58,890 nucleotides of DNA from Oscillospiraceae bacterium (lineage in GTDB: Bacteria; Bacillota; Clostridia; Oscillospirales; UBA929). The notes beneath the pieces were generated by a model, which was not told where the DNA came from, ran no database searches, and worked only from the letters and a program-made list of their open reading frames with translations. Shown in pieces: positions 1 to 57,527 of this stretch (position 1 is its first letter; every line of letters begins with the position of its first letter). The stretch lies in assembly GCA_009777255.1 (NCBI GenBank), contig WRMG01000003.1, forward strand, positions 1 through 58,890, given 5' to 3'. A program made the position numbers and the translations under genes.

Positions 1-212
1 CCGCCCCCGGCGCGCCGTGTTCCCTCCGCCGGCCCGTCGTAGGGGCGCGCATTGCGCGTCCGGTGTTATACGTTGCCGTTGTATGCGGCGCGTCAGGGAT
101 GCCGCGCCGTACAAAAACGGCGCATGTAGGGCGCGACGCCCCCGGCGCGCCGTGGGGTGACGACCACCCCGCCGCGCGGGGCGCGGCACCCCTCCAAGGA
201 GGGGAATTGGGA
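1..212. repeat. REP/BIME-like mosaic of GC-rich hairpin modules (truncated by window edge)
   Basis: GTAG+palindrome units at 39-61 (GTAGGGGCGCGCATTGCGCGTCC) and 126-151. Hairpins at 86-109, 154-170 and 171-187. CCCCTCCaaGGAGGGG at 189-204 followed by AATTGGG. 166-212 is nearly identical to 10281-10324. Confidence 0.8.
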
Positions 213-243
213 CGGGGCAAGTTCCATATGAAAGAGGTTTGTT

Positions 244-3863: not shown

Positions 3864-4787
3864 ATGGGGCTTGAGAGCAGGAATCTTATCAGCACCCTTG
3901 ATTTTTCAATTGAAGAACAGGATGAGGTATTGGCTTTGGCGGAGCGAATCATGGCGGCGCCGAAGGAATATGATCATTTGCTGGGAGGCCGGATAATGGC
4001 GTCCCTATTTTTTGAGCCCAGCACGCGCACAAGGCTGAGCTTCGAGGCCGCTATGCTGCGGCTGGGAGGACGGGTGATCGGGTTCTCGGAGGCGGGGTCG
4101 TCATCGGCGGCCAAGGGCGAGAGCCTGAGCGACACCATACGCACGGTGAGCCAATACGCGGATATTATCGTCGTGAGGCACCCCAAGGAGGGCGCGGCGA
4201 ACATCGCCGCGGGCGTTTCGGGGGTCCCCGTCGTCAACGCCGGCGACGGCGGGCACGAGCATCCGACGCAGACGCTGACGGACCTGTTGACGATACGCTC
4301 GGTGAAAAAACGCGTCGGCGGGCTTGCGGTCGGCTGCTGCGGGGACTTGAAGTTCGGGCGCACGGTACATTCGCTGGTGAAGAATATCAGCCGTTATGAG
4401 GGGGTGTCGTTTATCTTCGCGTCGCCGGACGAGCTGAGGATACCGAGATTTTTGCGGGCGTTTTTGGACGACAACGGCGTTGAATACGTCGAAACGGACA
4501 GAATGGACGGGAAAATAGCGGAGATGGATGTGCTGTATATGACGCGGGTGCAGAAGGAGCGGTTTTTTAACGAGGAGGAGTATATCAGGCTGAAGGATCT
4601 TTTTATACTCGACGCGGGCAAGCTGAGGAGCGCGAAAGAGGATCTGTGCATACTGCACCCGCTGCCGAGGGTGAACGAGATCGCGTATGAGGTGGACGCG
4701 GACAAACGCGCGGCGTATTTTCATCAGGCGGGCTGCGGCATGTACGCGCGCATGGCGCTGATGGCGTCGCTGCTGGGCGCGGTGTAA
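3864..4787 (+). CDS. pyrB: aspartate carbamoyltransferase catalytic subunit
   Basis: STRTR, HPTQ and HPLPR motifs. GGGGAGGG RBS. Confidence 0.95.
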
Positions 4788-4799
4788 AGGAGGGGTGAT

Positions 4800-5240
4800 A
4801 TGAAAGGGCAAAGGTTGGTTAACTCGATAGAAAAGGGCATTGTTATCGACCATATCCGCGCGGGGCTGGGGGTCAAGCTGTTCCACTTTTTGAAGCTGGA
4901 CAACGCGGATTTTACGGTGGTCATCATCTCCGGCGCGGAGAGCAAACGCATGGGACGCAAGGATATTATCAAAATTCAGAATATGATTGATATTGATTAT
5001 ACGGTCATCGGGCTGATAGACCACAACGCGACGATCTCAATAATCGAGGACGGGGAGATAACGGAGAAGAAAAAGCTGGAGCTGCCGCGCAGGGTCGAGA
5101 ACGTTATTGTTTGCAAAAACCCGCGCTGCATAACCTCGACGGAGAGGCAGATACCGCATGTTTTCAGCTTGCAGAACGCGGAGACGCGCACATACCGCTG
5201 CGATTACTGCGAGGACCATGTGCGCGGGATAGAGATATGA
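4800..5240 (+). CDS. pyrI: aspartate carbamoyltransferase regulatory subunit
   Basis: C-terminal zinc domain CxxxxC...CxxC (CKNPRC...CDYC). It immediately follows pyrB. Confidence 0.9.
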   Translation: MKGQRLVNSIEKGIVIDHIRAGLGVKLFHFLKLDNADFTVVIISGAESKRMGRKDIIKIQNMIDIDYTVIGLIDHNATISIIEDGEITEKKKLELPRRVENVIVCKNPRCITSTERQIPHVFSLQNAETRTYRCDYCEDHVRGIEI

Positions 5241-6436
5241 TAATCAAAAACGCGGTGCTGGTTGACTGGCGCGGGGTGCGCCGGGGCGAGCTGATTATCA
5301 AGGACGGCGTTATCGCGGAGCAGGGCGGAACAGGCGATATTATTGACGGGACGGGGCTTTATGTAATGCCGGCGTTTGTCGATTTGCACGCGCATCTGCG
5401 CACGCCGGGGCAGACGCATAAGGAGGATATAGCGAGCGGCACGCGCGCCGCCGTAAGGGGCGGGTATACCGCGCTGAACGCGATGGCGAACACTGTTCCC
5501 GTGTGTTCGGACGCGGAGATCGCGCGGGAGGTCTGTGAACAGGCGCGGGCGCTTGGGCGTTGCGATGTTTTTCAGAGCGTTAGCGTGACGCGGGATTTTG
5601 ACGGCGTGACGGTTTCGCATCTGGACGGGCTGGACGGCACGGAGGGGTTTATAAGGTGCATCTCGGAGGACGGGCGCGGCGTTAAGGACGGCGGCGTTTT
5701 TCTGGAAGCGCTGCGGCGGGCGGAGCGGTTTGGTAAAGCGCTGCTTGTCCACGCGGAGGACGCCGATTTCAGCGGGATAGATATGTATGCCGCCGAGGAT
5801 TTGGAAACGGCGCGGGATTTGTATATTGTTGAGATGTATTGCGGAAGGTATGGGAGAGAGAGGCTGAAGGTCCATTTCTGCCATGTTTCGACGGAGTATT
5901 CCGCGCGGGCGGTTATCGCCGCGAAGCGGCGGGGGCTGCCGGTGAGCCTTGAGGTGACGCCGCATCATATCGCGCTGAGTGACAGTGTTGACTTTCGCGT
6001 GAATCCGCCGCTGAGGCGCGAGGAGGACAGGGCATTTTTGGTGAAAGCCGTGCTGGACGGCGAGGTTGACGCTATCGCCACGGACCACGCGCCGCATACG
6101 GAGACGGAAAAGAAGAGCGGTGCGCCGGGACTGGTCGGGCTTGAAACGGCGTTTCAGGTGTGCTATACTACTCTTTGCCGCCTAAACGGGCTGCCGCTGT
6201 CAAGGCTGTCGGAGCTGATGAGCCTTAATCCCGCGCGGATACTGGGGATAAACAAGGGCTCGCTGGACGCCGGCGCCGACGGCGACGTCGTGTTGGTAGA
6301 CTTGGAGCGCGAGACGATTGTTGACAGCTCCGAGTTTTTCTCAAAAGGGAGAAACACGCCGTTTGACGGGAGAACGTATTTCGGCGGGGTTGTGATGACG
6401 ATAAAAAACGGGGAGGTTGTATATGATGAACGTTGA
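5237..6436 (+). CDS. pyrC: dihydroorotase
   Basis: DLHAHLR metal motif and DHAPH. ATG at 5237 gives an ATGA overlap with the pyrI stop. The track's 5111 start lies inside pyrI. Confidence 0.92.
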   Translation: MIIKNAVLVDWRGVRRGELIIKDGVIAEQGGTGDIIDGTGLYVMPAFVDLHAHLRTPGQTHKEDIASGTRAAVRGGYTALNAMANTVPVCSDAEIAREVCEQARALGRCDVFQSVSVTRDFDGVTVSHLDGLDGTEGFIRCISEDGRGVKDGGVFLEALRRAERFGKALLVHAEDADFSGIDMYAAEDLETARDLYIVEMYCGRYGRERLKVHFCHVSTEYSARAVIAAKRRGLPVSLEVTPHHIALSDSVDFRVNPPLRREEDRAFLVKAVLDGEVDAIATDHAPHTETEKKSGAPGLVGLETAFQVCYTTLCRLNGLPLSRLSELMSLNPARILGINKGSLDAGADGDVVLVDLERETIVDSSEFFSKGRNTPFDGRTYFGGVVMTIKNGEVVYDER

Positions 6437-7286
6437 TAAGCTGTATGACAACGCGGCGCGGAACGGCGTGGTGTGTCTGGGGCTGGACACCTCGGCGGCG
6501 TACATACCCGAGGGGTTTTTGGCGGGGTTTAATACCGTCGGCGAGGCGGTTTTCGAGTTCAACAGGAAAATAATCGACGCGACGTGTGACGCCGTGGCGT
6601 GCTACAAGGTCCAGATCGCCTATTACGAGGCCATGGGGCTGGAGGGGCTTGCGGCGTATTCAAAAACGCTGAAATACATAAAGAGCGCCGGGCAGCTGGC
6701 TATCGCCGACGTGAAGCGCGGGGACATCAAGGAGACGGCCGCGATGTACGCGAAAGCGCATTATTCGGGGGATTTTGAGGCGGATTTTGTCACGCTGAAC
6801 CCGTATATGGGCATGGATACGCTGGAGCCGTTCGAGCCGTATTTCGCGGAGGGCAAGGGGTGCTTCGCGCTGGTCAGGACCTCGAATGCCGGCGCGCGGG
6901 ACATACAATACTTGAGCGCGGACGGCGGCCGCAGGGTTTATGAAATTGTGGGAGAAAAGCTAAAAGCCTTGGGGGAGAAGCACATGGGCGCGCGCGGGTA
7001 CTCGGCGGTCGGCGCGGTTGTGGGCGCGACCAATGCTGAGGAGGGCGCAACCCTTAGAGAAAAACTTAGCACAACATTTTTTCTGATACCCGGGTTTGGG
7101 GCGCAGGGCGGGCGCGGCGCGGACGCGGCGGTGTACCTGCGGGACAATAACGGCGGGACGGTGAACTCGTCGCGTGCGGTGCTGACGCGCTGGAAAAAGC
7201 ATGAGGACGGCGCGGCGCGGTTTGACAGCTACGCGCGGGCGGAGGTCTTGGATATGAGAGAACAGATAGTAGTTACAAGTTACTAG
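6423..7286 (+). CDS. pyrF: orotidine 5'-phosphate decarboxylase (long/type 2 form)
   Basis: DVKRGDI motif and position in the pyr operon. ATG at 6423/6426 follows the GGGGAGG RBS. The track start 6417 is a TTG. Confidence 0.9.
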   Translation: MMNVDKLYDNAARNGVVCLGLDTSAAYIPEGFLAGFNTVGEAVFEFNRKIIDATCDAVACYKVQIAYYEAMGLEGLAAYSKTLKYIKSAGQLAIADVKRGDIKETAAMYAKAHYSGDFEADFVTLNPYMGMDTLEPFEPYFAEGKGCFALVRTSNAGARDIQYLSADGGRRVYEIVGEKLKALGEKHMGARGYSAVGAVVGATNAEEGATLREKLSTTFFLIPGFGAQGGRGADAAVYLRDNNGGTVNSSRAVLTRWKKHEDGAARFDSYARAEVLDMREQIVVTSY

Positions 7287-7298
7287 TTACTAGTTACA
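7271..7298 (+). repeat. four tandem heptamers AGTTAC(A/T) spanning the pyrF stop codon
   Basis: AGTTACA AGTTACT AGTTACT AGTTACA read directly. The pyrF TAG (7284-7286) lies inside units 2/3. Confidence 0.9.
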
Positions 7299-7385
7299 AG
7301 AGGAATACCCTGCCGCCTGCGGGCGGGGGGGGTGCGGGGCGCTTGGTGTGCGTTCCCTACCACAAAAAAGGGCAGGGTGAGGCGT

Positions 7386-8102
7386 ATGGGATATTTTAGC
7401 GCGAAAGTTTTGGCTAACGACAGGATTCATGACGGGGTTTACAGCATGAAAATCGCCGCCGGAACGGCGGGGGTCAGGCCGGGGCAGTTTTATATGCTGA
7501 TGCCGCGGGCGGCGCTGCTGGGGCGTCCGCTGAGTGTGTGCGAGCTTGGGGACGGGTGGATTGAGTTCTGTTACGCCGTCGTCGGGAAGGGCACGAGGGA
7601 GTTTTCTCAACTTCGAGAAAACGATGATATAGCCGCAAACGGGCCGGTTGGCAACGGCTTTGACGTTGATTTTATCAACACGCGTAAGCGCGTGGCGGTG
7701 GTGTCGGGCAGCGTGGGGATCGCGCCGTTTGTCGAGCTTGTGAAGCGGCTGACATGCGAGGTCAGTTGCTTTTGCGGGTTCCATGGTGGGAGTTATCTGA
7801 CGGAGCGGCTGCGTAACGTGAGCATCGCCACCGAGAGCGGCGCCGAGGGGCACAAGGGGCTTGTCACGGAGATATTTGACCCGCGCGGGTTTGAGCTGGT
7901 GCTGGCGTGCGGCTCGGAGGCGTTTTCAAAGGCGGTCACGCTGAAGTGCAAGGACGCCGGAACGTCGCTGCTCATCTCGCTTGACAGGCATATGGCGTGC
8001 GGCGTGGGCGCGTGTCTGTGCTGTACATGCGCGACGGCGGAGGGTAATAAACGATGCTGTGTAGACGGGCCGGTGTTTTGGGGAGAGGATTTAACATGCT
8101 AA
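7386..8102 (+). CDS. pyrK: dihydroorotate dehydrogenase electron-transfer subunit
   Basis: FAD/NAD-binding fold and C-terminal 2Fe-2S motif [14 protein letters not shown] at 7386 follows GGGTGAGG. Confidence 0.88.
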
Positions 8103-8995
8103 AGGTTTCGCTGTGCGGGGTGGAGCTTAAAAACCCTGTCATTATGGCGTCGGGGACGTTTGGATTCGGGCGGGAGTACGCGGGGTTCTATGATCTGTCG
8201 AGGCTGGGCGGCATTTGCACGAAAGGGCTGACGCTGGAGCCGCGCGAGGGCAACAGTGGGCGGCGCTCGCATGAGACGGCGATGGGGATGCTTAACAGCG
8301 TCGGTTTGCAAAACCCGGGTGTCGCGGCGTTTATTAAAGCTGAGCTGCCGTTTATGCTGGGACTGGGCACGGCGGTAATCGCCAATGTGGGCGGCAGCGA
8401 GCCGGAGGACTATATAAAATCCGTGGAGCTGCTGAACGGGACCGGCGTGAGCGTGATAGAGCTGAACATATCCTGCCCCAATGTGAAAAGGGGCGGCATG
8501 GCCTACGGGATCAAGGCGGCGACGGCTTACGCGTTCGTGCGGGAGATAAAGCGGGTGTGCAAGAAGCCGCTGATGGTAAAGCTGTCGCCGAACGCCGAGA
8601 ACATAATCGAGATGGCGGCGGCGTGTGAGGACGCGGGCGCGGACGCACTGTCGCTTATCAACACGCTGAAGGGCATGGCGGTGGATGTAAACACGCGGCG
8701 GCCGGTGTTTGACAATGTGTTCGCGGGGCTGTCGGGGCCGGCGGTGAAGCCCGTCGCGCTGAGGATGGTCTATGAGGTATGCAAATCTGTCAAGGCGCCC
8801 GTTGTGGGGATTGGCGGGATTGCCTGTGCCGCGGACGTGCTGGAGTTTATCATGGCCGGCGCGGCGGCGGTGCAGGTGGGCACCGCGAATTTCGTCAACC
8901 CCATGTGCGGTGCGGAGATTGTTGACGAGCTTCCGGCGCTGATGGAGCGTTTGGGGATAAAGACAATTGACGAGGTGAGAGGCGCGGCGCTGTAG
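8096..8995 (+). CDS. pyrD: dihydroorotate dehydrogenase B catalytic subunit
   Basis: Class 1B DHODase features (SGTFG, NxSCPN, GGI). ATG at 8096 overlaps the pyrK end. The TAG stop at 8993-8995 lies inside a GTAGGG repeat head. Confidence 0.92.
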
Positions 8996-9491
8996 GGGCG
9001 CGCATCGCGCGTCCGAGAGAAAAAACCTCCGGCCCTGCGGGGCCACCTCCTTTACAAAAGGAGGCAAGGAAGGCGCGGGGTTGCGGCGTTGTTGTAGGGG
9101 CGCGCATTGCGCGTCCGCCCGGGGACAATTGTTTCACGTGAAACAATTCCACCCCCCGTTTGTGTAGGGGCGACCGTCCCCGGTCGCCCGCCGTCCCCGG
9201 CGTACGGCGCGGCATCCCTGACGCGCCGTGGCAAATAACCCCATAACACCACACCCCGTTAACAACCGCGGGCGGTCGGGGGCGACCGCCCCTACACACG
9301 CCCGCCGTTCCATCCTGCCCCCTTTCGTAAAGGGGGTGCCGCCCCAACGGCGGGGGATTTACCACGGACGGCCAATGGCCGCCCCTACACACACGTCGCA
9401 CACCGCCCCAATTCCCCTCCATGGAGGGGTGGCCGGCGCAGCCGGACGGGGTGGTCGTCACCCACGGCGCGATAAGGACATCGCGCCCTAC
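8992..9491. repeat. BIME-like mosaic of at least 14 hairpin modules between pyrD and pyrE
   Basis: GTAG+hairpin units on + at 8992-9014, 9094-9116 and 9164-9189, and on - at 9270-9295, 9366-9388 and 9466-9491. Other hairpins at 9031-9044, 9046-9064, 9205-9228, 9318-9336, 9339-9353, 9414-9429, 9433-9445 and 9449-9463. Confidence 0.85.
9127..9148. promoter_or_regulatory. parS: parS (ParB/Spo0J binding site), perfect consensus
   Basis: TGTTTCACGTGAAACA at 9130-9145, a 16/16 match to the parS consensus. It extends to the 22-bp perfect palindrome AATTGTTTCACGTGAAACAATT. Confidence 0.85.
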
Positions 9492-9507
9492 GAAAGGAGA
9501 GATATAT

Positions 9508-10074
9508 ATGCGGGAGTTTGTTGTTGAGAGATTGATTGAGGCGGGCGCGTATTTGGAGGGGCATTTTTTATTGTCCTCGGGGCGGCACTCGGACAGGTAC
9601 TGCCAGTGCGCGAAGCTGTTTGAGGACCCGAAAACAGCCGCCGACGTCATTGCGGCGGCGGCGGAGAAGCTGAAGGGCGTTGACTTTGACCTTATCGCCG
9701 GGCCCGCGATGGGCGGGATTATCGCGGCGTATGAGCTGTCGCGTCAGACGGGGAGGCCGAACGTTTTCACCGAGCGCGAGAACGGCGTTATGTGTCTGCG
9801 CCGGGGGTTTTCAATAAAGCCGGGGGCGCGGGTGATCATTATGGAGGACGTTGTGACCACGGGGAAGTCCACCCTTGAAACTGCGGCGGCCATAAGGGCG
9901 CTGGGCGGCGTTGTGGCGGGTGCGGCGTGTATAGTTGACAGAGGCGCCGGTGACTTGGGGTTCCCGCTTTATGCGGCGGCGCGGATACGCGTTGAGAGCT
10001 ACAGCGCCGAGGATTGCCCGCTGTGCGCCGCAGGGGAAATTGAGCTTGTAAAGCCGGGGAGCCGTAAGTTTTAA
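9508..10074 (+). CDS. pyrE: orotate phosphoribosyltransferase
   Basis: PRPP-binding motif VIIMEDVVTTGKS. ATG at 9508 follows AAAGGAGAG. The track start 9421 lies inside the repeat mosaic. Confidence 0.92.
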   Translation: MREFVVERLIEAGAYLEGHFLLSSGRHSDRYCQCAKLFEDPKTAADVIAAAAEKLKGVDFDLIAGPAMGGIIAAYELSRQTGRPNVFTERENGVMCLRRGFSIKPGARVIIMEDVVTTGKSTLETAAAIRALGGVVAGAACIVDRGAGDLGFPLYAAARIRVESYSAEDCPLCAAGEIELVKPGSRKF

Positions 10075-10116
10075 TGAGAGCGGAAACCGCGCCGATGTCG
10101 TGAAATGTCGCACCCG

Positions 10117-10142
10117 CAAAATGTTTCACGTGAAACATTTTG
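10117..10142. promoter_or_regulatory. parS: parS, perfect consensus
   Basis: TGTTTCACGTGAAACA at 10122-10137 inside the 26-bp perfect palindrome CAAAATGTTTCACGTGAAACATTTTG. Confidence 0.85.
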
Positions 10143-10450
10143 GCGGCGGCAAAACAAACACGGGACGCGCGACAAAACAAATACGGGACGCCGAGGACGT
10201 CGTCCCCTACGGAACCCCCGTCTTTGCCCGGCAGGGCACCTGCCCGGCGCGATGAGGACATCGCGCCCTACGAAACCCCCCCGCCGCGCGGGGCGCGGCA
10301 CCCCTCCGAGGAGGGGAATTGGGGTGACGGGGCGTGTGTAGGGGCGACCGTCCCCGGTCGCCCGTGTGTGTTAGCGGTGTGTGGCGTTATGCGGTTATGT
10401 GCCACGGCGCGTCAGGGAAACCGCGCCGATGTCGTGAAATGTCGCACCCA

Positions 10451-10476
10451 CAAAATGTTTCACGTGAAACATTTTG
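10451..10476. promoter_or_regulatory. parS: parS, perfect consensus
   Basis: TGTTTCACGTGAAACA at 10456-10471 inside the same 26-bp palindrome as the 10117-10142 copy. Confidence 0.85.
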
Positions 10477-10541
10477 GCGTGCGGAAGAGCAAACGGGACG
10501 CGCGACAAAATAAACACGGGACGCCGAGGGGCAGGCGTCCC

Positions 10542-11276
10542 CTACGCGGAACCGCCCCTACGCGCCAGCACAAACGGCAGGTATAAAAACGTCCAGATGA
10601 CGGCCAGCAGCGGGATGACGCCCAGCAAATACCCGGGGTTCCCCAGAAAGGCCTCGAACGGTTCCAGCGGCGACCCGGGGGACGGCCAGTTGGCAAAGAA
10701 GAAGTTTGTGCCGAAGACCTTGTTGAATATATAAACCGGCGCGCCGAACGCGAGCAGCATTAAAACGCATTTGGGCAGGCGTTTTATCTCGGGGCGGACG
10801 TCGCCGCCTGCCACAGTCATGATTATGTACGCGCACAGGAGGATGTGTGTGATGAACGATTGCAGGCTTTGGATGTTAAGTATCGGGTAGCGCGTCCAGT
10901 CGGGAAAGGCCAGCGCGCTTAAAGCGCCGGGCAGCCCGAGGCAGTACAGGAACTCCCCCGTCAGCGTGCCGCCGCGTATTGCGTGGACCAGCACAAGCGC
11001 CTGAACGACGTCGCAGAGATGAAACGGCAGATAGTCCAGGCTGAAGATGCCGGCGTTTATCTGGAAGATTATCCGCCACAGCTGGAGCGCCGTTATAATT
11101 ACGGCGATAACGAGGCCCATGCGGCGCCTGCCGGACTGCGGCTTGCCGCGGTATATCAGGCTGAGCGCGGCGCAGACCGCGGCGCCGGCAGCCAGCCATA
11201 TAAGATGCTCCGGCCCGTACATTTGGATGCCGATTTCGGGCGGCAGGTTTTCGCCCAGCAGAAAAAAGTTTTCCAT
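10542..11276 (-). CDS. polytopic membrane protein (YwaF/TIGR02206-like, tentative)
   Basis: 244-aa ORF with about 7 hydrophobic segments. The C-terminal residues ...LARRGGSA and the TAG stop are encoded by GTAGGG-type repeat sequence. Confidence 0.7.
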   Translation of the reverse strand: MENFFLLGENLPPEIGIQMYGPEHLIWLAAGAAVCAALSLIYRGKPQSGRRRMGLVIAVIITALQLWRIIFQINAGIFSLDYLPFHLCDVVQALVLVHAIRGGTLTGEFLYCLGLPGALSALAFPDWTRYPILNIQSLQSFITHILLCAYIIMTVAGGDVRPEIKRLPKCVLMLLAFGAPVYIFNKVFGTNFFFANWPSPGSPLEPFEAFLGNPGYLLGVIPLLAVIWTFLYLPFVLARRGGSA

Positions 11277-11424: not shown

Positions 11425-11502
11425 GGTGGGTATAGCTCAGTTGGTTAGAGTACCAGATTGTGGCTCTGGGGGTCGGCGGTTCAATTCCGCTTACCCACCC
11501 CA
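11425..11502 (+). tRNA. tRNA-His (anticodon GTG)
   Basis: Hand-folded cloverleaf. G-1 pairs with discriminator C, acceptor GTGGGTA/TACCCAC, anticodon loop TTGTGGC, T-loop GGTTCAATT, encoded CCA. Confidence 0.9.
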
Positions 11503-11574
11503 GTCGGGAGCGTCCCGATGATCGCCAGCCCGACCGTATCGGATGCCGAAAAGTCCGGCGTCAGTTACCCAAGT

Positions 11575-11651
11575 TGGGATGTAGCCAAGCCGGTAAGGCA
11601 CCAGACTTTGACTCTGGCATTCCGCAGGTTCGAGTCCTGCCATCCCAGCCA
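11575..11651 (+). tRNA. tRNA-Gln (anticodon TTG)
   Basis: Acceptor TGGGATG/CATCCCA, anticodon stem CCAGA/TCTGG with loop CTTTGAC, T-arm GGTTCGAGTCC, encoded CCA. Confidence 0.9.
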
Positions 11652-11703
11652 GCCGAGTGCCTCGGCGCGCAAACGGACGAACGGGCCGGGGCACGAACCG
11701 TAT

Positions 11704-11779
11704 GACCCGCTAGCTCAGTCGGCAGAGCACCTGCCTTTTAAGCAGGGTGTCCGCAGTTCGAATCTGCGGCGGGTCACCA
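11704..11779 (+). tRNA. tRNA-Lys (anticodon TTT)
   Basis: Acceptor GACCCGC/GCGGGTC, D-arm GCTCAGTCGGCAGAGC, anticodon loop CTTTTAA, T-arm AGTTCGAATCT, encoded CCA. Confidence 0.9.
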
Positions 11780-22023: not shown

Positions 22024-22060
22024 CAATTAACAATGAACAATTAACAATTGGGAACTGTTC

Positions 22061-22192
22061 GTAGGGCGCGATGTCTTCATCGCGCCGTTTTTATTGCGAT
22101 GTTTTTATTGCGATGTCTTCATCGCGCCGTTTTCATTGCATTGTTTTTATCGCGCCGTTTTTATTGCGCCGTTTTTATCGCGCCGTTTTTAT
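22061..22192 (+). repeat. degenerate tandem array of hairpin plus T-run units
   Basis: GTAGGGCGCGATGTCTTCATCGCGCC at 22061-22086, a partial second copy at 22110-22128, then repeated (A)TCGCGCCGTTTTTAT(T) units. Confidence 0.8.
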
Positions 22193-31915: not shown

Positions 31916-33142
31916 ATGAAAAAACTTTTCGCTCTTGCGCTTGCCGCCCTCATGCTCACAGCGCTGCTCGCGGCGTGCGCCACCGGTGGCGGAGGCTCCG
32001 GTTCAGGTGGCATCACCAAAGAAAACATCACCCTCAAATTCTGGGAATCCGAGACCGAAGGCAGCGTATTTATGAACTACGCGGCCGAAGAGTTCACCAA
32101 GCTGTACCCCAACATCACCTTTGAGTTCGAGCCTGTAGCTCACGTTGACGCCACGCAGAAAATAGTGCTGGACGGCCCTGCCGGCGTCGGCCCTGATCTG
32201 TACGCCATCCCGCATGACATGCTGGGTGCCAATGCCAACGGCGGCGTCGCGCTGCCCAACCCCAACCCCGACTACATAAAGAACAACTTTGTGGATGCCG
32301 CGGTTACGGGCGCCACTTTCGGCGGGACTGTTTACGGGTATCCGCTGGCCATTGAAACCTATGCGCTGTTCTACAACAAAGACCTTCTGCCCGAGCCGCC
32401 CAAGACATGGGACGAGGTCATATCGTTCGCGCAGGGTTACAACGATCCCTCGCAGAACAAATACGCCATTGTCTGGGAACCCAGCAACGCGTATTTCAGC
32501 TATATCTTCTTCAGCGGCTTCGGCTCGTCGCTGTTCGGACCCAACGGCGACGACAAGACCCAGCATAGCATCAACGCGCCCAATACCATCAGAGGTGTTG
32601 AATTCTTCAAGAGCATCAGGAACATACTGGACGTTCCTTCCGGCGACCTGAGCGGCGACTTCTGCAACAGCGCGTTTGAGTCGGGTCTTGCCGCGATGTA
32701 TCTTGTCGGCCCGTGGCGTATCCCCGACTGTAAGGAGTCCGGCATTAACTTCGGCATAACGACCATTCCCGTTTTCCCCGGCGAGTCCTCACCGCCGGCC
32801 TCTTTCTCCGGCGTGCGCCTGATGGTTATTTCGGCGTATTCCAAGTATCCCGAGGAGACGGCGCTGTTCGCCGAATTTGTAACCTCTAATGAAATGGCAC
32901 TAAAACGCTTTGAGATGCTCGACCAGATTCCGGCCCGCAACGACGTCACGATCGACGACGAGTATTCCGCCGGTATTCTGGCCCAGGCCGAATACGCGTT
33001 CCCGATGCCCTCCATCGACGAGATGGGCCAGTACTGGCAGACCATGGGCGCCGCTTACGCCAATGTCTGGGACGGCAGCGATCCCAAGACTGAGCTTGAC
33101 GCGGCGGCGGCCGTAATGGAGGCCACAATAGCGGGAGGCTAA
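31916..33142 (+). CDS. sugar (maltodextrin-type) ABC substrate-binding lipoprotein
   Basis: Lipobox LLAAC plus Gly/Ser linker. MalE-like SBP_bac_1 sequence. AAGGAGGA RBS. Confidence 0.85.
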   Translation: MKKLFALALAALMLTALLAACATGGGGSGSGGITKENITLKFWESETEGSVFMNYAAEEFTKLYPNITFEFEPVAHVDATQKIVLDGPAGVGPDLYAIPHDMLGANANGGVALPNPNPDYIKNNFVDAAVTGATFGGTVYGYPLAIETYALFYNKDLLPEPPKTWDEVISFAQGYNDPSQNKYAIVWEPSNAYFSYIFFSGFGSSLFGPNGDDKTQHSINAPNTIRGVEFFKSIRNILDVPSGDLSGDFCNSAFESGLAAMYLVGPWRIPDCKESGINFGITTIPVFPGESSPPASFSGVRLMVISAYSKYPEETALFAEFVTSNEMALKRFEMLDQIPARNDVTIDDEYSAGILAQAEYAFPMPSIDEMGQYWQTMGAAYANVWDGSDPKTELDAAAAVMEATIAGG

Positions 33143-33161
33143 ACTGTAAACTGAATCGCGG

Positions 33162-33185
33162 GGGGACGCCATAAGCGGCGTTCCC
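33162..33185 (+). other. intercistronic stem-loop after the SBP gene
   Basis: GGGGACGCC ataagc GGCGTTCCC (9 bp including one G-T). The minus-strand reading GTGAGGGAACGCC... resembles the GTAGGG repeat heads. Confidence 0.6.
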
Positions 33186-33215
33186 TCACGACATTTAATT
33201 AGGAGGTCTGTTTTT

Positions 33216-34610
33216 ATGGATGTCCCCCTGAAAAAAACGGATGTTTCGCTGCGTAAAAAAGCGCTGATAACCGGCATACTGTTCATGGGGCTGGGGCATA
33301 TACTTTTTCTGAAACAGCAGGTCAAGGGCGCGGTTTATATGGTGACCGAGCTTGCGGCGCTATTTTTTATCGCGTTTGAAACGACTGCCGCGGGGCTTAG
33401 CCTCAACTTCAACGGGATTCTCATCAGGGGCATACGGGGGTTCATTACGTTAGGCGTTTTCGACCCGAGCCTTCCCGTTACGGAACGCGATCATTCTATT
33501 TTCATTATGATCGACGGGCTTATCTGCATCGTGGTGCTGGTGCTGCTGATCGCTATTTACGCGCTGTCCATCCGCGATACACTGAAAATCACTGCGGATT
33601 ACGAAAATACCGGCAAGCTCTCCGGCAACAAAGAGTTTTTGCACACGGTTTCGGACAGGGCGTTCCCGTCAATCGGGCTGTCGCCGGTGATAATACTTTT
33701 GACGTTCTTTGTCATCCTGCCGATACTGTTCTCGTTCTTCATCGCGTTTACGAACTACTCTTATCCCGACAATATCCCGCCCGCGAACAAGGTGGACTGG
33801 GTGGGAATCAAGAACTTTGTCGATTTGTTCGGAGGCAGCTCGGCAATGTCGATGTGGTCAACCGCGCTGGGCCGCGTTTTGGCATGGACGCTCATATGGG
33901 GCGTGACGAGTACGGCGTGCGTTTATTTCTGCGGTATGTTCATGGCGATCTCGCTTCTTAACAGGGATATAAAGATCGCGCCGTTTTTCCGCGGGATTTT
34001 TATCCTGCCGTATGCCGTTCCCGCAACGCTGAGCCTTATGGTGTGGTCGAACCTGTTAAACGGCACCTTCGGGCCGCTTAACCAGATGCTTATGGCGGTG
34101 GGGATAATAGACAGAAACATACCGTGGCTCACCGACCCGAACATCGCCAAGGTTTCCATGATACTCGCCAACACATGGACGGGGTTCCCGTATCACATGC
34201 TGATGGTGACCAGCATAATGACGTCGATCTCGCCGGATATATACGAGGCCGCGAGCATCGACGGCGCTTCGCAGTGGCAGAAGACCGCCAAGATAACCAT
34301 GCCGCTGGTTCTGACCCAGACGCTGCCGCTGATAATAATGTCGTTTACTTACAACATAAACAATTTCGGCGCGGCGTTCTTCCTGTTCATGGGCGCCGGC
34401 GCGACGGTCGGCCCGCCGGCCGCCGATACGGTCTCCACAAACGCCAACTCGGTGGACATCGTCGTCTCATGGATATACAAGCTGACCCTGAACAATCCGC
34501 AGAAGTTCCAATACGCCGCGGTGCTGGCGGTGCTGGTGTTCGTTATACTTACGCCGTTCGCCATATGGAACTATACGCGCACAAAATCATATAAGGAGAG
34601 TGATTTATAA
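33216..34610 (+). CDS. sugar ABC transporter permease (MalF-like)
   Basis: 464 aa polytopic protein with an EAA-type loop (YEAASIDGASQWQKTAKITMP). Confidence 0.88.
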   Translation: MDVPLKKTDVSLRKKALITGILFMGLGHILFLKQQVKGAVYMVTELAALFFIAFETTAAGLSLNFNGILIRGIRGFITLGVFDPSLPVTERDHSIFIMIDGLICIVVLVLLIAIYALSIRDTLKITADYENTGKLSGNKEFLHTVSDRAFPSIGLSPVIILLTFFVILPILFSFFIAFTNYSYPDNIPPANKVDWVGIKNFVDLFGGSSAMSMWSTALGRVLAWTLIWGVTSTACVYFCGMFMAISLLNRDIKIAPFFRGIFILPYAVPATLSLMVWSNLLNGTFGPLNQMLMAVGIIDRNIPWLTDPNIAKVSMILANTWTGFPYHMLMVTSIMTSISPDIYEAASIDGASQWQKTAKITMPLVLTQTLPLIIMSFTYNINNFGAAFFLFMGAGATVGPPAADTVSTNANSVDIVVSWIYKLTLNNPQKFQYAAVLAVLVFVILTPFAIWNYTRTKSYKESDL

Positions 34611-35458
34611 TGGTCAGGAGTTTATCTTGGCGCCGCATCCTCAATGTGGCTATGATCCATATCATACTTCTGGCGGTCGTGGTCGTCATTATCTATCCTC
34701 TGCTGTATGTTGTGGGCAGCGCGTTCTCGCCGGTATCAAGCCTTCAGGGCATCGGCATAAACCCGTTTTCACAGGCGCCCACGCTCTTGCAGTTCAGAAA
34801 GCTGTTTAACGAAACCAATTACCTGACATGGTACAGGAACACCCTCACAATCGCCGTAATGGTAAGCATCGCCACTCTGATTATCACCAGCACGGCCGCG
34901 TATATCTTCTCGCGCTTCAAGTTCCTGATGCGCAAGCAGCTTATGGTTTCGTTCCTGGTGTTTCAGATATTCCCGAGCTTTGTCGGGATGGTGGCTATCT
35001 ATATCCTGCTGCTGCGTATCGGCGGACTGGACACTAAATGGGGGCTGGCGCTGGTTTACATCGCGGGCAACATCCCGTATAACACATGGCTTGTCAAGAG
35101 CTATATGGACAGCATCCCCAAGAGCTTTGACGAAGCGGCCCGTATTGACGGCGCGTCGAACTTTGTGGCTTACACCCGTATCATACTGCCCATAGCAAAG
35201 CCGATACTGACATTCCTGCTCATCACCAGCTTTACCGGCCCGTGGATGGACTTTATCATCCCGCGCCTTGTGCTGCGCAGCGACAAACAGTTCACGCTGG
35301 CGCTGGGGCTGTTTAACCTGATCAACGGCAGAGCCGCAAACAACTATACCATGTTCGCGGCGGGCGCGCTGCTTGTCGCCGTCCCGTTTGTGGCGCTGTT
35401 CCTTATAGGGCAGAAATCGCTGCTGACCGCGCTGGGCGCCGCCGGAGTTAAAGAATAA
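34610..35458 (+). CDS. sugar ABC transporter permease (MalG-like)
   Basis: EAA loop FDEAARIDGASNFVAYTRIILP. The start overlaps the upstream stop. Confidence 0.88.
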   Translation: MVRSLSWRRILNVAMIHIILLAVVVVIIYPLLYVVGSAFSPVSSLQGIGINPFSQAPTLLQFRKLFNETNYLTWYRNTLTIAVMVSIATLIITSTAAYIFSRFKFLMRKQLMVSFLVFQIFPSFVGMVAIYILLLRIGGLDTKWGLALVYIAGNIPYNTWLVKSYMDSIPKSFDEAARIDGASNFVAYTRIILPIAKPILTFLLITSFTGPWMDFIIPRLVLRSDKQFTLALGLFNLINGRAANNYTMFAAGALLVAVPFVALFLIGQKSLLTALGAAGVKE

Positions 35459-36999
35459 TGTTAAAACCAAAGAAAAGCATTGCGTTAATTGTTGTCCTGC
35501 TTATGGTGCTGTCGGCGTGTTCGCCGGCAGCACCTGCGGCTGGGGAGCGTTTGGCCCGGGGCGCGAAGCAGGGCACATACTACGAGGTGTTCGTGCGCGC
35601 GTTCGCCGACAGCGACGGCGACGGGATCGGCGACTTTGCCGGGCTTGCCGGAAAGATGGATTATTTTTCCGATATGGGCATAACGGGGCTGTGGCTTATG
35701 CCGGTGTTCGAGTCGCCGTCATACCACGGCTATGACACCACCGACTACTACAAAATAAACTCAGACTACGGCACGATGGAGGACTTCGAGGCGTTTATCG
35801 CGGCGGCGGACGAGCGCGGCATCGCCGTTATACTTGATCTGGTGGTAAACCATTCCTCAACGCGAAACGAGTGGTTTATTCAGTCGCGCGGCCCTGACAG
35901 CCCGTACCGCGATTGGTATTACTGGTCCGATGACGGCGAGGATGTAAACCTGAGCGCCTCGTTTTACGGCAACAGGGTGTGGAACCAAACCTCCTCAGGC
36001 TACTACGCGGGCCTGTTTTGGGGCGAAATGCCCGACCTTAACCTTGATAACCCCGAGGTTCGCGCCGAGATAAAGCGGATAGCCGAGTTCTGGCTGGGAA
36101 AGGGCGTGTCCGGTTTTCGGCTCGACGCCGCAATGCACGTGTTCAACAGCGGCAAGCTGCCGATGGGCTCCGGCCTGAATCAGGAGGAAAAAAGCCTCGA
36201 GTGGTGGACGGAGTTCGCCGAGTTCTGCCGAGGGATAGATCCCGACTGCTATATAGTGGGCGAGATTTGGGCGGCGTCCGCCACCCGCGCGGCGTATACC
36301 GCCGCGCTGGACAGCGCGTTTCATTTCGACATGGGCGAAACGCTGGCGCGTACGGTTGTGCGCGGCAGCGACGCGGGCAACGCGTTTGCAAAATATATGA
36401 AATCGGAGTATAATAGACTCAGCGGCGTTAACCCCAACGCTATCGACGCGCCGTTCCTGTCCAACCACGACCAGAACCGTATCAGCACCATGCTGAGAAA
36501 CGACCCCGAAAACCTTAAAATGGCGGCCAATATCTATCTGACCTTGCAGGGCTTGCCGTTTGTCTATTACGGCGAGGAGCTGGGCATGATCGGCGGCAAG
36601 CCCGACGAGAATATCAGGACGCCGTTTTTGTGGGGCGCGGACGACCCCGCGCTGACCTCATGGCACAGCACCGTCTACAACGACAATGTCGCTTCGTATG
36701 CCGAGCAGTCGAAGGATTCAAATTCGCTGCTCAACCGCTATAAGGCGCTTATACGGCTCAGGGCGGCGACGCCCGCGCTGTTCGCCGGAACGCTTGAGCC
36801 CGTGGATTCGGGCAGCGACGCGGTTATGGCATATACGATGACCGCGCCGGAACAGACCGTTCTGGTGCTGCACAACCTGTCAAAGGAGCGGCAGACGCTG
36901 GAGCTTGACGGCTCGGGCACGGTGATTTTCGGCGAGGGAAGGGCGGGCGCTAACGGCATAACGCTGGAGCCGCAGAGTTCACTGATCATTGAGAGGTGA
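35458..36999 (+). CDS. secreted GH13 alpha-amylase-family lipoprotein
   Basis: Lipobox VLSAC. GH13 regions DLVVNH, GFRLDAAMH, GEIW, FLSNHD. Confidence 0.88.
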   Translation: MLKPKKSIALIVVLLMVLSACSPAAPAAGERLARGAKQGTYYEVFVRAFADSDGDGIGDFAGLAGKMDYFSDMGITGLWLMPVFESPSYHGYDTTDYYKINSDYGTMEDFEAFIAAADERGIAVILDLVVNHSSTRNEWFIQSRGPDSPYRDWYYWSDDGEDVNLSASFYGNRVWNQTSSGYYAGLFWGEMPDLNLDNPEVRAEIKRIAEFWLGKGVSGFRLDAAMHVFNSGKLPMGSGLNQEEKSLEWWTEFAEFCRGIDPDCYIVGEIWAASATRAAYTAALDSAFHFDMGETLARTVVRGSDAGNAFAKYMKSEYNRLSGVNPNAIDAPFLSNHDQNRISTMLRNDPENLKMAANIYLTLQGLPFVYYGEELGMIGGKPDENIRTPFLWGADDPALTSWHSTVYNDNVASYAEQSKDSNSLLNRYKALIRLRAATPALFAGTLEPVDSGSDAVMAYTMTAPEQTVLVLHNLSKERQTLELDGSGTVIFGEGRAGANGITLEPQSSLIIER

Positions 37000-37004
37000 T
37001 TGTG

Positions 37005-40000
37005 ATGAAAAAACATGTGTTGTCATTATTGCTGGCGGCGCTGATTGTCGCCGCGTTTGTGCCGCTCGCGCAGTCGTCGCCGGTGACGGTGACGATCCAC
37101 TACCACCGCGACGACGGCGACTATGAAAAATGGAATATATGGTCATGGGTGACGGACGGCTCGGCTTACCCCTTTACAGATGAGGATAAATTTGGTATGA
37201 TAGCCGAGATAACCCTCGACAACCCGAATAACGCGCCGGTCGGGTTTATAGTGCGCACGGACTCATGGGAAAAGGACGTTCAGGAGGACAGGTTTATCGA
37301 CCTTGCCAAAGGGAGTGAGATTTGGGTGTTTTCAGGAGAATCCGAGTTTTATTACGAGGCGCCGCCGGGCTATGAGCCGGACGCCCGCGACTTTGAGAAC
37401 TTCACGCTGGATTTCAGCTATTTCCGCTATGACGGCGATTACTCCGACGTCAGCCTGCACTTCAGGCGCGACGAGGGCGCGTCGGCACAGGAATATCTGC
37501 TGCCGCTGGCGCCCAACGAAAACGGCGCGGGCGTCGTCTATGAGTTCGGCGCGATGAGAGAGGCGCTTAACGCGACGGTATGGATAATGCGCGGCGACGA
37601 GGCCGTGGACTATAACGACACGGTGATCAACCTCACCCGCGCGGATGAGAACGAACGCCTTACGCTTTACGCCATGCAGGACACCGGCCTTATCTCCGCG
37701 GCCCCGTTCGATACTGAGCCCGCGATAACCTCGGCCACGATCGAGGGCAAAAATTCAATCAAGGTCACGACAAAATTCCCCATCAGCGCGGACAGGGAAT
37801 TTGTTATCATGTATTACGATACGCTTATGGCCGCGCGCTCCAATATCACATCGGGATATACCGACACATTTTGGCTGACATCGGAATGGGATTTGGATTT
37901 CGCGTCGGAATACAGCCTGTACACCAATGAGTTCGAGGCTGTTCCGATAACGCTTGGAAACGTGTTCGACAGCGAGGAGTTTGAACGCATGTTCACCTAT
38001 AACGGCGAGCTTGGCGTGGTCTACACCGACGACAAGGTGACGTTTACGCTCTGGGCGCCCACGGCGGCAAAAGCCAACGTGCTGCTGTATGACACGGGGC
38101 GGGTGACGCCGAACAGCGAGGACCCGCGGCGAGGCATTGAGATGACGCGCGGTGATAACGGCACATGGTACGCCGAGGCGGCGCCCGGGGAGTACGGCCT
38201 GCTGAAGGGCAAGTTTTATACCTATCAGGTGCTGATCGGCGGCGAGTGGCGCGAAGCCGTTGACCCGTATGCCAACGCCGTCGGCGTGAACGGTATGCGC
38301 GGGCAAATCATCGACCTGAAGGACACCGACCCCTCTGGCTGGGACGCCGACAAGCGGTTCGCGCTGAGCAATCCGGTGGACGCGGTCATCTATGAGCTGC
38401 ATGTGCGCGACCTGTCCACGCACGAGTCGTCGGGTATTGTCAACAGGGGCAAATTCCTCGGCATCGCCGAAACAGGCACCGTTTCCCCCGCCGGCGAGAA
38501 AACCGGGCTTGACCATATCATCGACTTGGGCGTAACGCATGTGCATTTGCTGCCCTCTTATGACTACAGGACAGTAAACGAGCTGTACCCCGAGGACGAG
38601 GAGTTCAACTGGGGCTATGACCCGCAGAACTACAACGCGCCAGAGGGCTCCTATTCCACCGACGCCCACGACGGCGCGGTGCGCGTGGCGGAGTTTAAGC
38701 AGATGGTAAAGACGCTGCACGACAACGGTATAGGCGTTGTTATGGATGTTGTGTATAACCATGTGTACGACGCCGAATCCAGCAGCTTTAACCAGCTTGT
38801 GCCGGGCTATTATTTCCGCGTGAGGCCGGACGGGACCTATTCCAACGGCTCGGGCTGCGGAAACGAAACGGCGTCGGAGCGCGCGATGATGCGTAAATTT
38901 ATGGTTGACTCCGTTGTTTACTGGGCGAGCGAATACCATATCGACGGGTTCAGGTTCGACCTGATGGGCCTGCACGACATCGAAACGATGAACCTTATCC
39001 GCGCCGAGCTGGATAAAATCGACCCCTCCATCATGGTCTACGGAGAGGGCTGGACCGGCGGCGGCACGCCGCTGCCCGACCCGCAGCAGGCGCTGAAGAA
39101 AAATGTGCCGTTCCTGCACGACCGCGTCGCGGCGTTCAGCGACGATATACGCGACGGCATAAAGGGCAGCGTGTTCAACCATGAGGAGCCGGGCTTTGTC
39201 AACGGAAACCCGCGCCGCTCGGAGGATATACGGTTCGGCGTTGCGGCGTCGGTACAGCATCCGCAGGTGAATATAACAAACGTCAGCTACTCCGACAGCT
39301 TCTGGGCAAACCAGCCGTCGCAGACAATAAGCTACGCGTCGGCGCATGACAACCTCACGCTCTGGGACAAGCTGCAAGCGACGAATCCCAACGCGGACGA
39401 CAGGGAGCTTGCGGCCATGAACAGGCTTTCGGCCGCCATTGTTCTTACTTCGCAGGGGATACCGTTCTTTCAGGCGGGCGAGGAGATGGCCAGAACGAAG
39501 CGCGGCGACGAAAATAGCTACAAATCCCCCGACAGAGTCAATCAGCTCGATTGGGACAGGAAAAGCGAGTTTACAGACTTGTATAACTACTATAAAGGAC
39601 TAATAGAACTGCGTAAGGTGACATCAGAATTTCGCATGAGATCCGCCGATGAGATACGCGAAAAAATAAAGTTTTTCGACGTCGCGGAGGGCGTCGTTGC
39701 GTATACGATCGGCGACAATATCTGCGTGGTTTTCAACGGCGGAAATGAAACCGCGGCGGTCGGTCTGCCGGCGAGCGGCTGGGATATACTTGTAAACGAG
39801 GTGAAGGCCGGCACGGAACCGCTAGATTCGGTCGGAGTGACGCTGAACGCGGCGCCAAAAGGCGCGTATGTACTGACGAGAAACGCCGAAGTCCCCTCCG
39901 GCGCAACAAATCAGCCCGCCGTTATAGGGCCGGACGGGGAGTCTGACAACACCGTTATTCCGCCGCTGGGCTGGCTTGCGGTGGGCGCGGCGATACTCTT

Positions 40001-40052
40001 GGGCGCGGCGAGTATTGTATATTATCTGTTCAGAAAAAGGCGCAAGAAATAA
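37005..40052 (+). CDS. pulA: type I pullulanase (GH13) with N-terminal carbohydrate-binding modules and a C-terminal TM anchor
   Basis: Signal peptide. YNWGYDP, DVVYNH, GFRFDLMG, YGEGW and SAHDN motifs. C-terminus ...GWLAVGAAILLGAASIVYYLFRKRRKK. Confidence 0.9.
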   Translation: MKKHVLSLLLAALIVAAFVPLAQSSPVTVTIHYHRDDGDYEKWNIWSWVTDGSAYPFTDEDKFGMIAEITLDNPNNAPVGFIVRTDSWEKDVQEDRFIDLAKGSEIWVFSGESEFYYEAPPGYEPDARDFENFTLDFSYFRYDGDYSDVSLHFRRDEGASAQEYLLPLAPNENGAGVVYEFGAMREALNATVWIMRGDEAVDYNDTVINLTRADENERLTLYAMQDTGLISAAPFDTEPAITSATIEGKNSIKVTTKFPISADREFVIMYYDTLMAARSNITSGYTDTFWLTSEWDLDFASEYSLYTNEFEAVPITLGNVFDSEEFERMFTYNGELGVVYTDDKVTFTLWAPTAAKANVLLYDTGRVTPNSEDPRRGIEMTRGDNGTWYAEAAPGEYGLLKGKFYTYQVLIGGEWREAVDPYANAVGVNGMRGQIIDLKDTDPSGWDADKRFALSNPVDAVIYELHVRDLSTHESSGIVNRGKFLGIAETGTVSPAGEKTGLDHIIDLGVTHVHLLPSYDYRTVNELYPEDEEFNWGYDPQNYNAPEGSYSTDAHDGAVRVAEFKQMVKTLHDNGIGVVMDVVYNHVYDAESSSFNQLVPGYYFRVRPDGTYSNGSGCGNETASERAMMRKFMVDSVVYWASEYHIDGFRFDLMGLHDIETMNLIRAELDKIDPSIMVYGEGWTGGGTPLPDPQQALKKNVPFLHDRVAAFSDDIRDGIKGSVFNHEEPGFVNGNPRRSEDIRFGVAASVQHPQVNITNVSYSDSFWANQPSQTISYASAHDNLTLWDKLQATNPNADDRELAAMNRLSAAIVLTSQGIPFFQAGEEMARTKRGDENSYKSPDRVNQLDWDRKSEFTDLYNYYKGLIELRKVTSEFRMRSADEIREKIKFFDVAEGVVAYTIGDNICVVFNGGNETAAVGLPASGWDILVNEVKAGTEPLDSVGVTLNAAPKGAYVLTRNAEVPSGATNQPAVIGPDGESDNTVIPPLGWLAVGAAILLGAASIVYYLFRKRRKK

Positions 40053-46089: not shown

Positions 46090-46165
46090 AAGGGCAGGTG
46101 CCCTGCCGGGCAATCAGGGGACAGGCGTGGAATTTGATCATCCGCGTGTAAGGAGGAATTCACCT

Positions 46166-52052: not shown

Positions 52053-52075
52053 GCGTGCGCAATGCGCGTCCCTAC
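52053..52075 (-). repeat. GTAG+hairpin REP-like unit containing the pnp stop codon
   Basis: Minus strand GTAGGGACGCGCATTGCGCACGC. The TAG at 52074-52072 is the pnp stop. Confidence 0.8.
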
Positions 52076-57468: not shown

Positions 57469-57527
57469 GCGCCCCCAACGTGCCCCCGCCCCACGCCCCG
57501 CCGTGCCCCCCGCGCGCGCCGTACCCT

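Follow-up and report, generated by a model that had tools for sequence, protein, structure and literature searches.

Three exact parS sites bracket pyrE

The window analyzed here, by which we mean the whole 58,890-base stretch of DNA under study, probably derives from an uncultured termite-gut bacterium whose closest named relatives are Oscillospiraceae. It carries three copies of parS, the palindrome recognized by ParB/Spo0J, on the two sides of pyrE, the gene for orotate phosphoribosyltransferase. Searching the window for TGTTTCACGTGAAACA returned exact 16/16 matches beginning at 9130, 10122 and 10456, the same three positions that had been reported in a preliminary description of this DNA. 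The assignment of this 16-mer to the widely conserved ParB/Spo0J parS consensus is borne out by its agreement at 16/16 positions with TGTTNCACGTGAAACA, the consensus of B. subtilis (PMC7022226 Table 1). Each copy had also been said to extend into a perfect palindrome of 22-26 bp, and we find palindromes of 22, 26 and 26 bp. The sites and the genes around them are listed below.

9127-9148, no strand: parS1, with the 16-mer at 9130-9145 inside the 22-bp perfect palindrome AATTGTTTCACGTGAAACAATT
10117-10142, no strand: parS2, with the 16-mer at 10122-10137 inside the 26-bp perfect palindrome CAAAATGTTTCACGTGAAACATTTTG
10451-10476, no strand: parS3, with the 16-mer at 10456-10471 inside a 26-bp palindrome, CAAAATGTTTCACGTGAAACATTTTG, identical to that of parS2
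3864-8995: the gene run pyrB-pyrI-pyrC-pyrF-pyrK-pyrD
8054-8995, plus strand: pyrD, the last gene of that run
9508-10074, plus strand: pyrE, bracketed by the parS sites
10542-11276, minus strand: a gene for a TMEM164-family membrane protein, convergent with pyrE
11426-11779, plus strand: a cluster of tRNA-His, tRNA-Gln and tRNA-Lys genes, given for context

All three sites are intergenic. parS1 is located 363 nt 5' of the pyrE ATG in the 512-bp spacer between pyrD and pyrE, and parS2 and parS3 are located 48 nt and 382 nt, respectively, past the pyrE stop codon, in the 467-bp spacer ahead of the convergent TMEM164-family gene. The claim that three such matches have a negligible chance of arising at random agrees with the behavior of dinucleotide-preserving shuffles (n = 100), which yielded a mean of 0.01 parS matches and never reached three (0/100). 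No further site with two or fewer mismatches exists in the window, where the only site with three mismatches is at 19499. Outside the three sites the half-parS GTTTCAC is not enriched in the window either (10 observed vs 6.6 expected).

ParB paralogues of the Noc type bind a related palindrome, the Noc-binding site (NBS), whose half-site has an adenine at position 1 and a cytosine at position 6, whereas parS has a guanine at position 1 (PMC7383237). The window sites lack these NBS bases and agree with the parS consensus at each of the 16 positions, and they are therefore parS and not NBS.

The sites lie within mosaics of GTAG-tagged hairpins

The intergenic DNA around the sites had been described as a mosaic of hairpins resembling repetitive extragenic palindromes (REPs), and GTAG hairpins do surround all three sites. 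The module most easily recognized carries a GTAG tag on a G+C-rich hairpin, as in TGTAGGGGCGACCGTCCCCGGTCGCCC; examples have the form GTAGGGGCG-N12-CGCCC or variants of it, and the hairpins are seen in computed folds. GTAGGGGCG hairpins occur at 8992, 9094, 9164, 9288 (minus strand), 9381 (minus strand), 10338 and 10554 (minus strand). GTAG REPs are defined as imperfect G+C-rich hairpins of 20 to 40 nt with an unpaired GTAG at the 5' end (PMC3733652, PMC3333891), and the window hairpins have all of these properties. The mosaics and the repeats that compose them are as follows.

8991-9499, no strand: left mosaic, filling the pyrD-pyrE spacer
8991-9015, 9093-9117, 9163-9190, 9270-9296 (minus) and 9365-9390 (minus): GTAG-REPs of the left mosaic
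10075-10565, no strand: right mosaic, between pyrE and the TMEM164 gene, with REPs at 10337-10364 and 10553-10562 (minus)
10082-10196, plus strand: first copy of a duplicated segment of ~115 nt, made up of the left flank GGAAACCGCGCCGATGTCGTGAAATGTCGCACCC, parS2 and two copies of the 23-nt unit GCGRCAAAAYAAAYACGGGACGC
10416-10529, plus strand: second copy of the ~115-nt segment, carrying parS3
9205-9303 and 10330-10428, no strand: left and right arms of an inverted module pair of 99 nt, 85% complementary, which brackets pyrE

The REPs are oriented + + + - - in the left mosaic and + - in the right mosaic, and parS1 is located between two GTAG-REP hairpins of the same orientation. When the DNA around parS1 is folded as a single strand it forms three consecutive hairpins, REP-parS-REP, with a z-score of -4.4. 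The left mosaic also holds hairpin modules of the types CCCCTCC...GGAGGGG and CGGCGCG...CGCGCC. At its left end the stop codon of pyrD coincides with the TAG in the GTAG of the first REP (gcg ctg TAG ggg, window 8990-8995). Directly next to the coding sequence, this REP thus provides the stop codon of pyrD.

parS2 and parS3 are part of a local duplication. The two ~115-nt copies (repeat families D1, D5 and D7) are 95-98% identical and are 333-334 nt apart, so that the duplication is dispersed and does not form a regular tandem array. The hairpin that ends the second copy is probably the terminator of the convergent TMEM164 gene.

The same repeat modules recur in at least five other intergenic loci of the window (1-215, ~22058-22130, ~46092-46113, ~52057-52075 and ~57527-57672), with modules of the right mosaic being common to 146-211, 22058-22130 and 46092-46113. 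No parS or near-parS site is present at any of these other mosaic loci, and parS is therefore not a routine passenger of the REPs. This result also speaks to the proposal that the 16-mer might simply be scattered over REP loci, which within the window is not the case. The repeats are dispersed in the manner of REPs, occupying six or more loci in the window and differing in content between the window and the strain variant described below. The family has the appearance of GTAG-tagged REPs, here in a lineage of Bacillota; a 2013 survey assigns GTAG repeats to Proteobacteria, Cyanobacteria, Chloroflexi and the PVC group only (PMC3733652).

Independent contigs carry the same sites

Two ENA contigs from sample ERZ27257348 carry the same sites together with their flanks. 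Contig L023 contains parS1 (439-454) and parS2 (at 1193), and contig L022 contains parS3 (6958-6973). Both were reached through the exact TMEM164 protein and a truncated PyrE (P0001), while exact-protein look-ups of PyrD and of PyrE with either of its possible starts returned no record. As the sites were recovered in two independent contigs, they are not an artifact of one assembly. The independent contigs cover both sides of the locus, and none spans the stretch from parS2 to parS3. Their ends fall within the mosaic, at window positions ~10267 and ~10311 that flank this stretch, in line with the tendency of such repeats to break short-read assemblies.

L023 represents a strain variant, with pyrD 95.6% and pyrE 98.8% identical to the window. 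Its pyrD-pyrE spacer is only 193 bp vs 512 bp in the window; missing from it are ~85 nt that in the window follow the first GTAGGG, as well as further modules amounting to ~250 nt, and a different hairpin replaces the REP downstream of parS1. Both of these differences start directly after GTAGGG(G), including the GTAGGG at the pyrD stop. Despite this turnover of REPs, parS2 as well as parS1 and its immediate flanks are unchanged in L023.

The cluster and its mosaic are absent from the sister clade

Among other relatives, the nearest encode PyrE proteins 74-77% identical to that of the window and include the metagenome-assembled genome (MAG) Oscillospiraceae bacterium Nt197P3bin72 as well as contigs from JGI 3300010167, ENA ERZ27257304 and Logan runs. 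Their pyrD-pyrE gap ranges from 3 to ~145 bp (3 bp in L024, L025 and L026, ~143 bp in L001), and in L027 one small acetyltransferase gene stands between pyrD and pyrE. Neither GTAGGGGCG nor a parS site with up to three mismatches is present in the sister-clade contigs, of which up to 20 kb was examined. The gene order downstream of pyrE also differs between the window lineage and the sister clade. Since the sister clade has neither the mosaic nor parS, both appear to be a recent acquisition of the window lineage. An exact search with the 43-nt unit of parS2 and parS3 gave 0 matches in 185,579 GTDB genomes.

parS sites and REPs co-occur in related termite-gut bacteria

A genome scan for parS followed by GTAGGGG within 35 nt, which we used as a lead, returned at least 119 loci. 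Most single matches among those listed are at chance level, while the matches listed also include a single termite-gut MAG, Oscillospiraceae bacterium Th196P3bin36, with four contigs that hold 7, 5, 2 and 2 perfect parS sites. A stricter pattern (parS, 1-20 nt, TGTAGGGGCG) matched 11 loci in the 185,579 genomes, 3 of them in Th196P3bin36 and 4 in other Oscillospirales MAGs. The same pattern matched 13 JGI metagenome contigs, 10 of which belong to the series Ga0082212, Ga0099364, Ga0123353/5/6 and JGI20163J15578. We take these series to be termite-gut samples, to which they are tied by the titles of termite-gut MAG records. The related loci and the genes beside them are listed below.

L161: three parS plus REPs in the order mnmG-rsmG, parS and REPs, parA-parB
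L116 (JAZQLY010000011.1, Eubacteriales MAG), 4457-4962: six perfect parS and one with a single mismatch in ~500 bp
L064 (WRLS01000033.1, MAG Th196P3bin36), 130-2659: seven perfect parS in the short spacers of mnmE-mnmG-rsmG-noc
L157: parS upstream of parB, beside serS
L094/L158, L087, L151 and L159: clusters at unrelated genes, namely alaS, an amidase gene, spoIIP and a GGDEF gene, respectively

Next to parA-parB or mnmG-rsmG-noc, these relatives have a 16-mer identical to that of the window, and its A/T flanks and neighboring GTAG hairpins are shared as well. In L116 the sites are arranged in tandem units of 104 and 168 nt that include GTAGGGG hairpins and are located directly upstream of parA-parB, and in L064 a gap of just 9 nt separates two of the sites (204 and 229). 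The ParB proteins encoded at L161, L116 and L157 carry R173 and G201, and the rsmG-adjacent ParB paralogue of L064 has the exact signature QKKR. The former two residues are invariant in parS-binding ParBs while QKKR is the specificity signature of Noc (PMC7383237). In addition, a repeat module of 44 to 48 nt is 96-98% identical between the window (57625-57672) and Th196P3bin36 (L153, 987-1034 and 3686-3729), and the window organism and Th196P3bin36 therefore share a repeat repertoire. The shared hairpin module reads CCCCAATTCCCCTCC...GGAGGGGTGGC..., and the loci compared showed no long similarity in coding DNA.

The 16-mer is conserved while the surrounding repeats diverge

In Th196P3bin36 parS is part of a composite REP-linker-parS-REP unit, which is tandemly repeated in L087 with a period of 163 nt and 85% matches and which occurs on three different contigs (alignment A1). 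Outside parS these units are 64-77% identical, both within arrays and between contigs, whereas parS itself is 16/16 in 7/8 units. With a flank divergence of ~30%, an unconstrained 16-mer would be unchanged between two copies with a probability of ~0.003 (0.7^16). Taking the window together with all related loci, we count 41 perfect parS sites vs 3 with one or two mismatches, a tally of 44 in which about a dozen sites were required by the search pattern itself and the rest were not. We take the persistence of an exact 16-mer amid repeats that turn over as pointing to selection for ParB binding.

Conservation also extends past the 16-mer. In a set of 33 sites, consisting of the window sites and those of L064, L150, L151, L153-L159 and L161, an A at -2 and a T at +2 are each present in 31/33, a purine (R) is found at -3, and a T or C occupies +3 in 31/33. 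These clade-wide flanks give an extended site of 20 to 22 bp, which might mean either that the ParB footprint is extended or that the copies share a common origin.

Multiplication of a protein-binding site along with REPs would have both a precedent and a mechanism in published REP arrays that carry linker or flanking DNA (PMC3333891, PMC3733652). Reiteration of REP clusters along with the DNA next to them has been described (PMC3733652). Bacterial interspersed mosaic elements (BIMEs) are built of alternating REPs and inverted REPs with linkers in between. In E. coli the linker of BIME-1 carries a site for IHF, and TnpA-REP cleaves and recombines at inverted REP (iREP) and linker sites and can amplify BIMEs (PMC3333891). 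The suggestion of the preliminary description that a repeat element spread the parS copies holds in part. It is supported by the local duplication of parS2 and parS3 with their flanks, and by the tandem and multi-contig units in the related MAG. Its strong form, in which the 16-mer would be found at many REP loci, does not hold within the window.

The window lacks origin markers

Pfam and NCBIfam scans of the 59 large open reading frames (ORFs) of the window, 9 of which have no match of any kind, detected no member of the ParA, ParB, Noc or DnaA families. Likewise, tblastn of the window with the ParA, ParB, Noc, MnmG, MnmE and RsmG proteins of relatives gave no match. The absence of parA/parB, dnaA and origin markers claimed earlier is thus upheld by the family scans and extended by tblastn, with the qualification that DnaA was sought in the window through Pfam scans only. 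Altogether, none of dnaA, dnaN, parAB, noc, mnmG, mnmE and rsmG is found within 9 kb to the left or 48 kb to the right of the sites. There is also no perfect DnaA box and no cluster of boxes in the window. DnaA-box-like 9-mers (TTATCCACA with one mismatch) are scattered over it in excess, with 25 observed vs 7.5 expected from shuffles (0/100 shuffles reach 25), which is possibly a composition or codon effect. The GC skew is positive or near zero over the whole window and shows no lasting reversal.

Regarding other signals, an Rfam scan of the window found the three tRNAs only and no PyrR or other element, and a promoter and terminator scan was uninformative on the parS sites. No window ORF matched a transposase family, including RAYT (REP-associated tyrosine transposase)/TnpA-REP, in the Pfam and NCBIfam scans. 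We considered whether the locus is the partition site of an integrated plasmid or phage and rejected this, as its neighbors are housekeeping genes and BLAST of the mosaics against plasmids and phages gave no similarity. Elsewhere in the window (31916-40052), genes for a sugar ABC transporter (a binding protein and two permeases) are followed by those for an alpha-amylase and a pullulanase-like enzyme of 1018 aa. Together they form a cluster for starch or pullulan utilization that is unrelated to the parS sites.

Discussion

We believe that the three 16-mers are genuine chromosomal parS sites that form an accessory or secondary ParB-loading cluster and that were multiplied along with REP/BIME-like repeats, a reading that we hold to be likely although well short of certain. 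With housekeeping genes on both sides and mosaics that have no similarity to plasmids or phages, the cluster is chromosomal rather than mobile. From the established biology of ParABS systems, ParB dimers would recognize each palindrome, bind CTP and close into clamps that would then slide over the neighboring few kb, i.e. over pyrD, pyrE, the TMEM164 gene and the tRNA cluster. The resulting partition complex would be able to interact with ParA and to load SMC (PMC7333895), and three sites within 1.35 kb would be expected to raise the local rate of ParB loading. That ParB spreads over pyrE, as was proposed for this locus earlier, is a reasonable expectation from this behavior.

As for the history of the cluster, we propose that a GTAG-tagged REP/BIME-like intergenic mosaic arose in the window lineage, and that parS acts in the manner of linker or flanking DNA of this mosaic and is copied along with it. 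The 115-nt duplication in the window, and the tandem units of 104 to 168 nt and composite REP-linker-parS units of the relatives, would be the visible products of such copying. The mechanism may be REP-associated recombination, which the published behavior of REP arrays makes plausible.

Several points weigh against this interpretation. The cluster is of recent date and is missing from the nearest relatives, which is how a neutral passenger would look as well. parS2 and parS3 were duplicated so recently that their identity says little about selection. Both the cognate ParB of the window genome and the distance of the cluster from oriC are deduced only from relatives. Moreover, the 11 genome loci and 13 metagenome contigs returned by the stricter pattern are not clearly above chance, and the frequency of the association is biased by a search pattern that required parS beside GTAGGGG(CG). 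The informative part of these searches is the concentration of matches in one MAG and in termite-gut samples.

One alternative is that the sites are neutral hitch-hikers, a single parS having been captured by a REP/BIME-like mosaic and duplicated as junk that any ParB present would bind but that selection would not maintain for segregation or SMC loading. Such a history would fit the lack of both cluster and mosaic in the sister clade, the variation in REP content between strains, the recent 95-98% duplication that copied parS2/parS3 together with non-parS flanks, and the known habit of REP clusters to reiterate with flanking DNA (PMC3733652). We nevertheless think it unlikely, because the 16-mer is perfect in 41/44 sites against ~30% flank divergence in the related repeat family, and because parS1 and parS2 persist through the turnover of REPs between strains. 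It also sits poorly with the at least five mosaic loci of the window that have no parS, and with the finding that extra perfect parS sites nucleate ParB wherever they are placed and hence are not functionally silent (PMC7333895).

Less probable still is the first alternative of the preliminary description, in which an origin-proximal locus would serve the chromosome as its primary centromere and as a hub for SMC loading. Three perfect sites within 1.35 kb would suit such a hub, parS sites are usually origin-proximal (PMC7333895, PMC7022226), and a GC skew without lasting reversal places the window probably within one replichore. However, the window has no dnaA, dnaN, parA, parB, noc, mnmG, mnmE or rsmG and no cluster of DnaA boxes, and in relatives the densest arrays are directly at parAB or mnmG-rsmG-noc while further clusters are found at unrelated loci. 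The lack of origin markers, together with the position of the main arrays of relatives, therefore makes a secondary cluster more likely. We give very little credence to the idea that the palindromes are not ParB sites at all but operators with a CACGTG core for another regulator, or RNA hairpins that control pyrE. The sites do bracket pyrE, parS2 follows its stop codon by only 48 nt, and each site folds into a single-strand hairpin of 9 to 11 bp. But they have the exact parS consensus, which recurs in relatives beside parAB and beside non-pyrimidine loci; they have no Rfam match, and their A/T-rich stems were missed by the terminator scan.

Clusters of parS are a known feature of chromosomes, as illustrated by the 10 sites of B. 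subtilis (8 in the ori domain), parS1-4 of P. aeruginosa and the 22 sites of M. xanthus (PMC7022226). The pyrE cluster resembles these in its consensus-identical 16-bp palindrome, in having several sites within a few kb and in the ParB-CTP loading, sliding and SMC recruitment expected of it, and it shares an intergenic position with parS3 and parS4 of P. aeruginosa. It differs from them in having no adjoining parAB or origin marker in 59 kb, in not being conserved in the nearest relatives, and in sitting within GTAG-REP mosaics with which it was partly duplicated. The Noc-binding sites of Bacillota are likewise parS-related palindromes scattered on the chromosome and bound by a ParB paralogue, and a paralogue with QKKR is encoded in the related MAG; the window sites are set apart from them by being parS at all 16 positions (NBS rule, PMC7383237).

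With E. coli BIME-1 (RIP/RIB), which consists of REP pairs and a conserved L linker with an IHF site (PMC3333891), the locus has in common that a site for a chromosome-organizing protein is situated in the linker between GTAG REPs and is multiplied together with them, that copy number and composition vary among strains, and that breakpoints fall at the GTAG end. Unlike in BIME-1, the site is parS and not an IHF site, and the REPs beside parS have the same orientation instead of forming the canonical inverted pair. Also unlike BIME-1, most mosaic loci of the window have no parS and no RAYT/TnpA-REP gene is present among the window ORFs.

A further comparison is with sopC of the F plasmid, which consists of twelve 43-bp repeats, each with a SopB site. 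There, too, repeated units each contain one palindromic site for a ParB-family protein, and this layout is the same as that of the 104-, 163- and 168-nt units of L116 and L087. The pyrE locus is unlike sopC in being chromosomal and in having the chromosomal parS consensus. The units of the relatives are longer and contain REP hairpins, while the window has a dispersed 334-nt duplication.

In the literature that we searched we found no report of parS being carried by repeat elements. What is new here is thus not a parS cluster as such but its embedding in, and apparent co-amplification with, GTAG-REP mosaics across termite-gut Oscillospiraceae. A stronger version of our proposal would be that GTAG-REP/RAYT-type machinery actively copies parS as a BIME linker in these bacteria, generating REP-linker-parS modules both in tandem and dispersed, and so seeding ParB/SMC-loading sites at arbitrary intergenic loci, of which pyrE would be one, where selection retains them. 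We raise this version tentatively and consider it possible but rather doubtful. If true, it would amount to a mobile centromere module able to rewire chromosome folding.

parS sites are the entry points of ParB and SMC and so set the segregation and folding of the chromosome. How new parS sites originate and multiply has been largely undescribed, and the locus analyzed here and its relatives suggest a testable route. There is a practical consequence as well: as the mosaics break short-read assemblies at parS clusters, counts of parS in MAGs are expected to be too low, with clusters often lost or split. If the proposal is not confirmed, the pyrE locus would be an ordinary secondary parS cluster in a repeat-rich spacer. 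If it is confirmed, small palindromic repeats would be shown to give rise to new centromere-like sites, a process comparable to the spreading of IHF sites by the BIMEs of E. coli.

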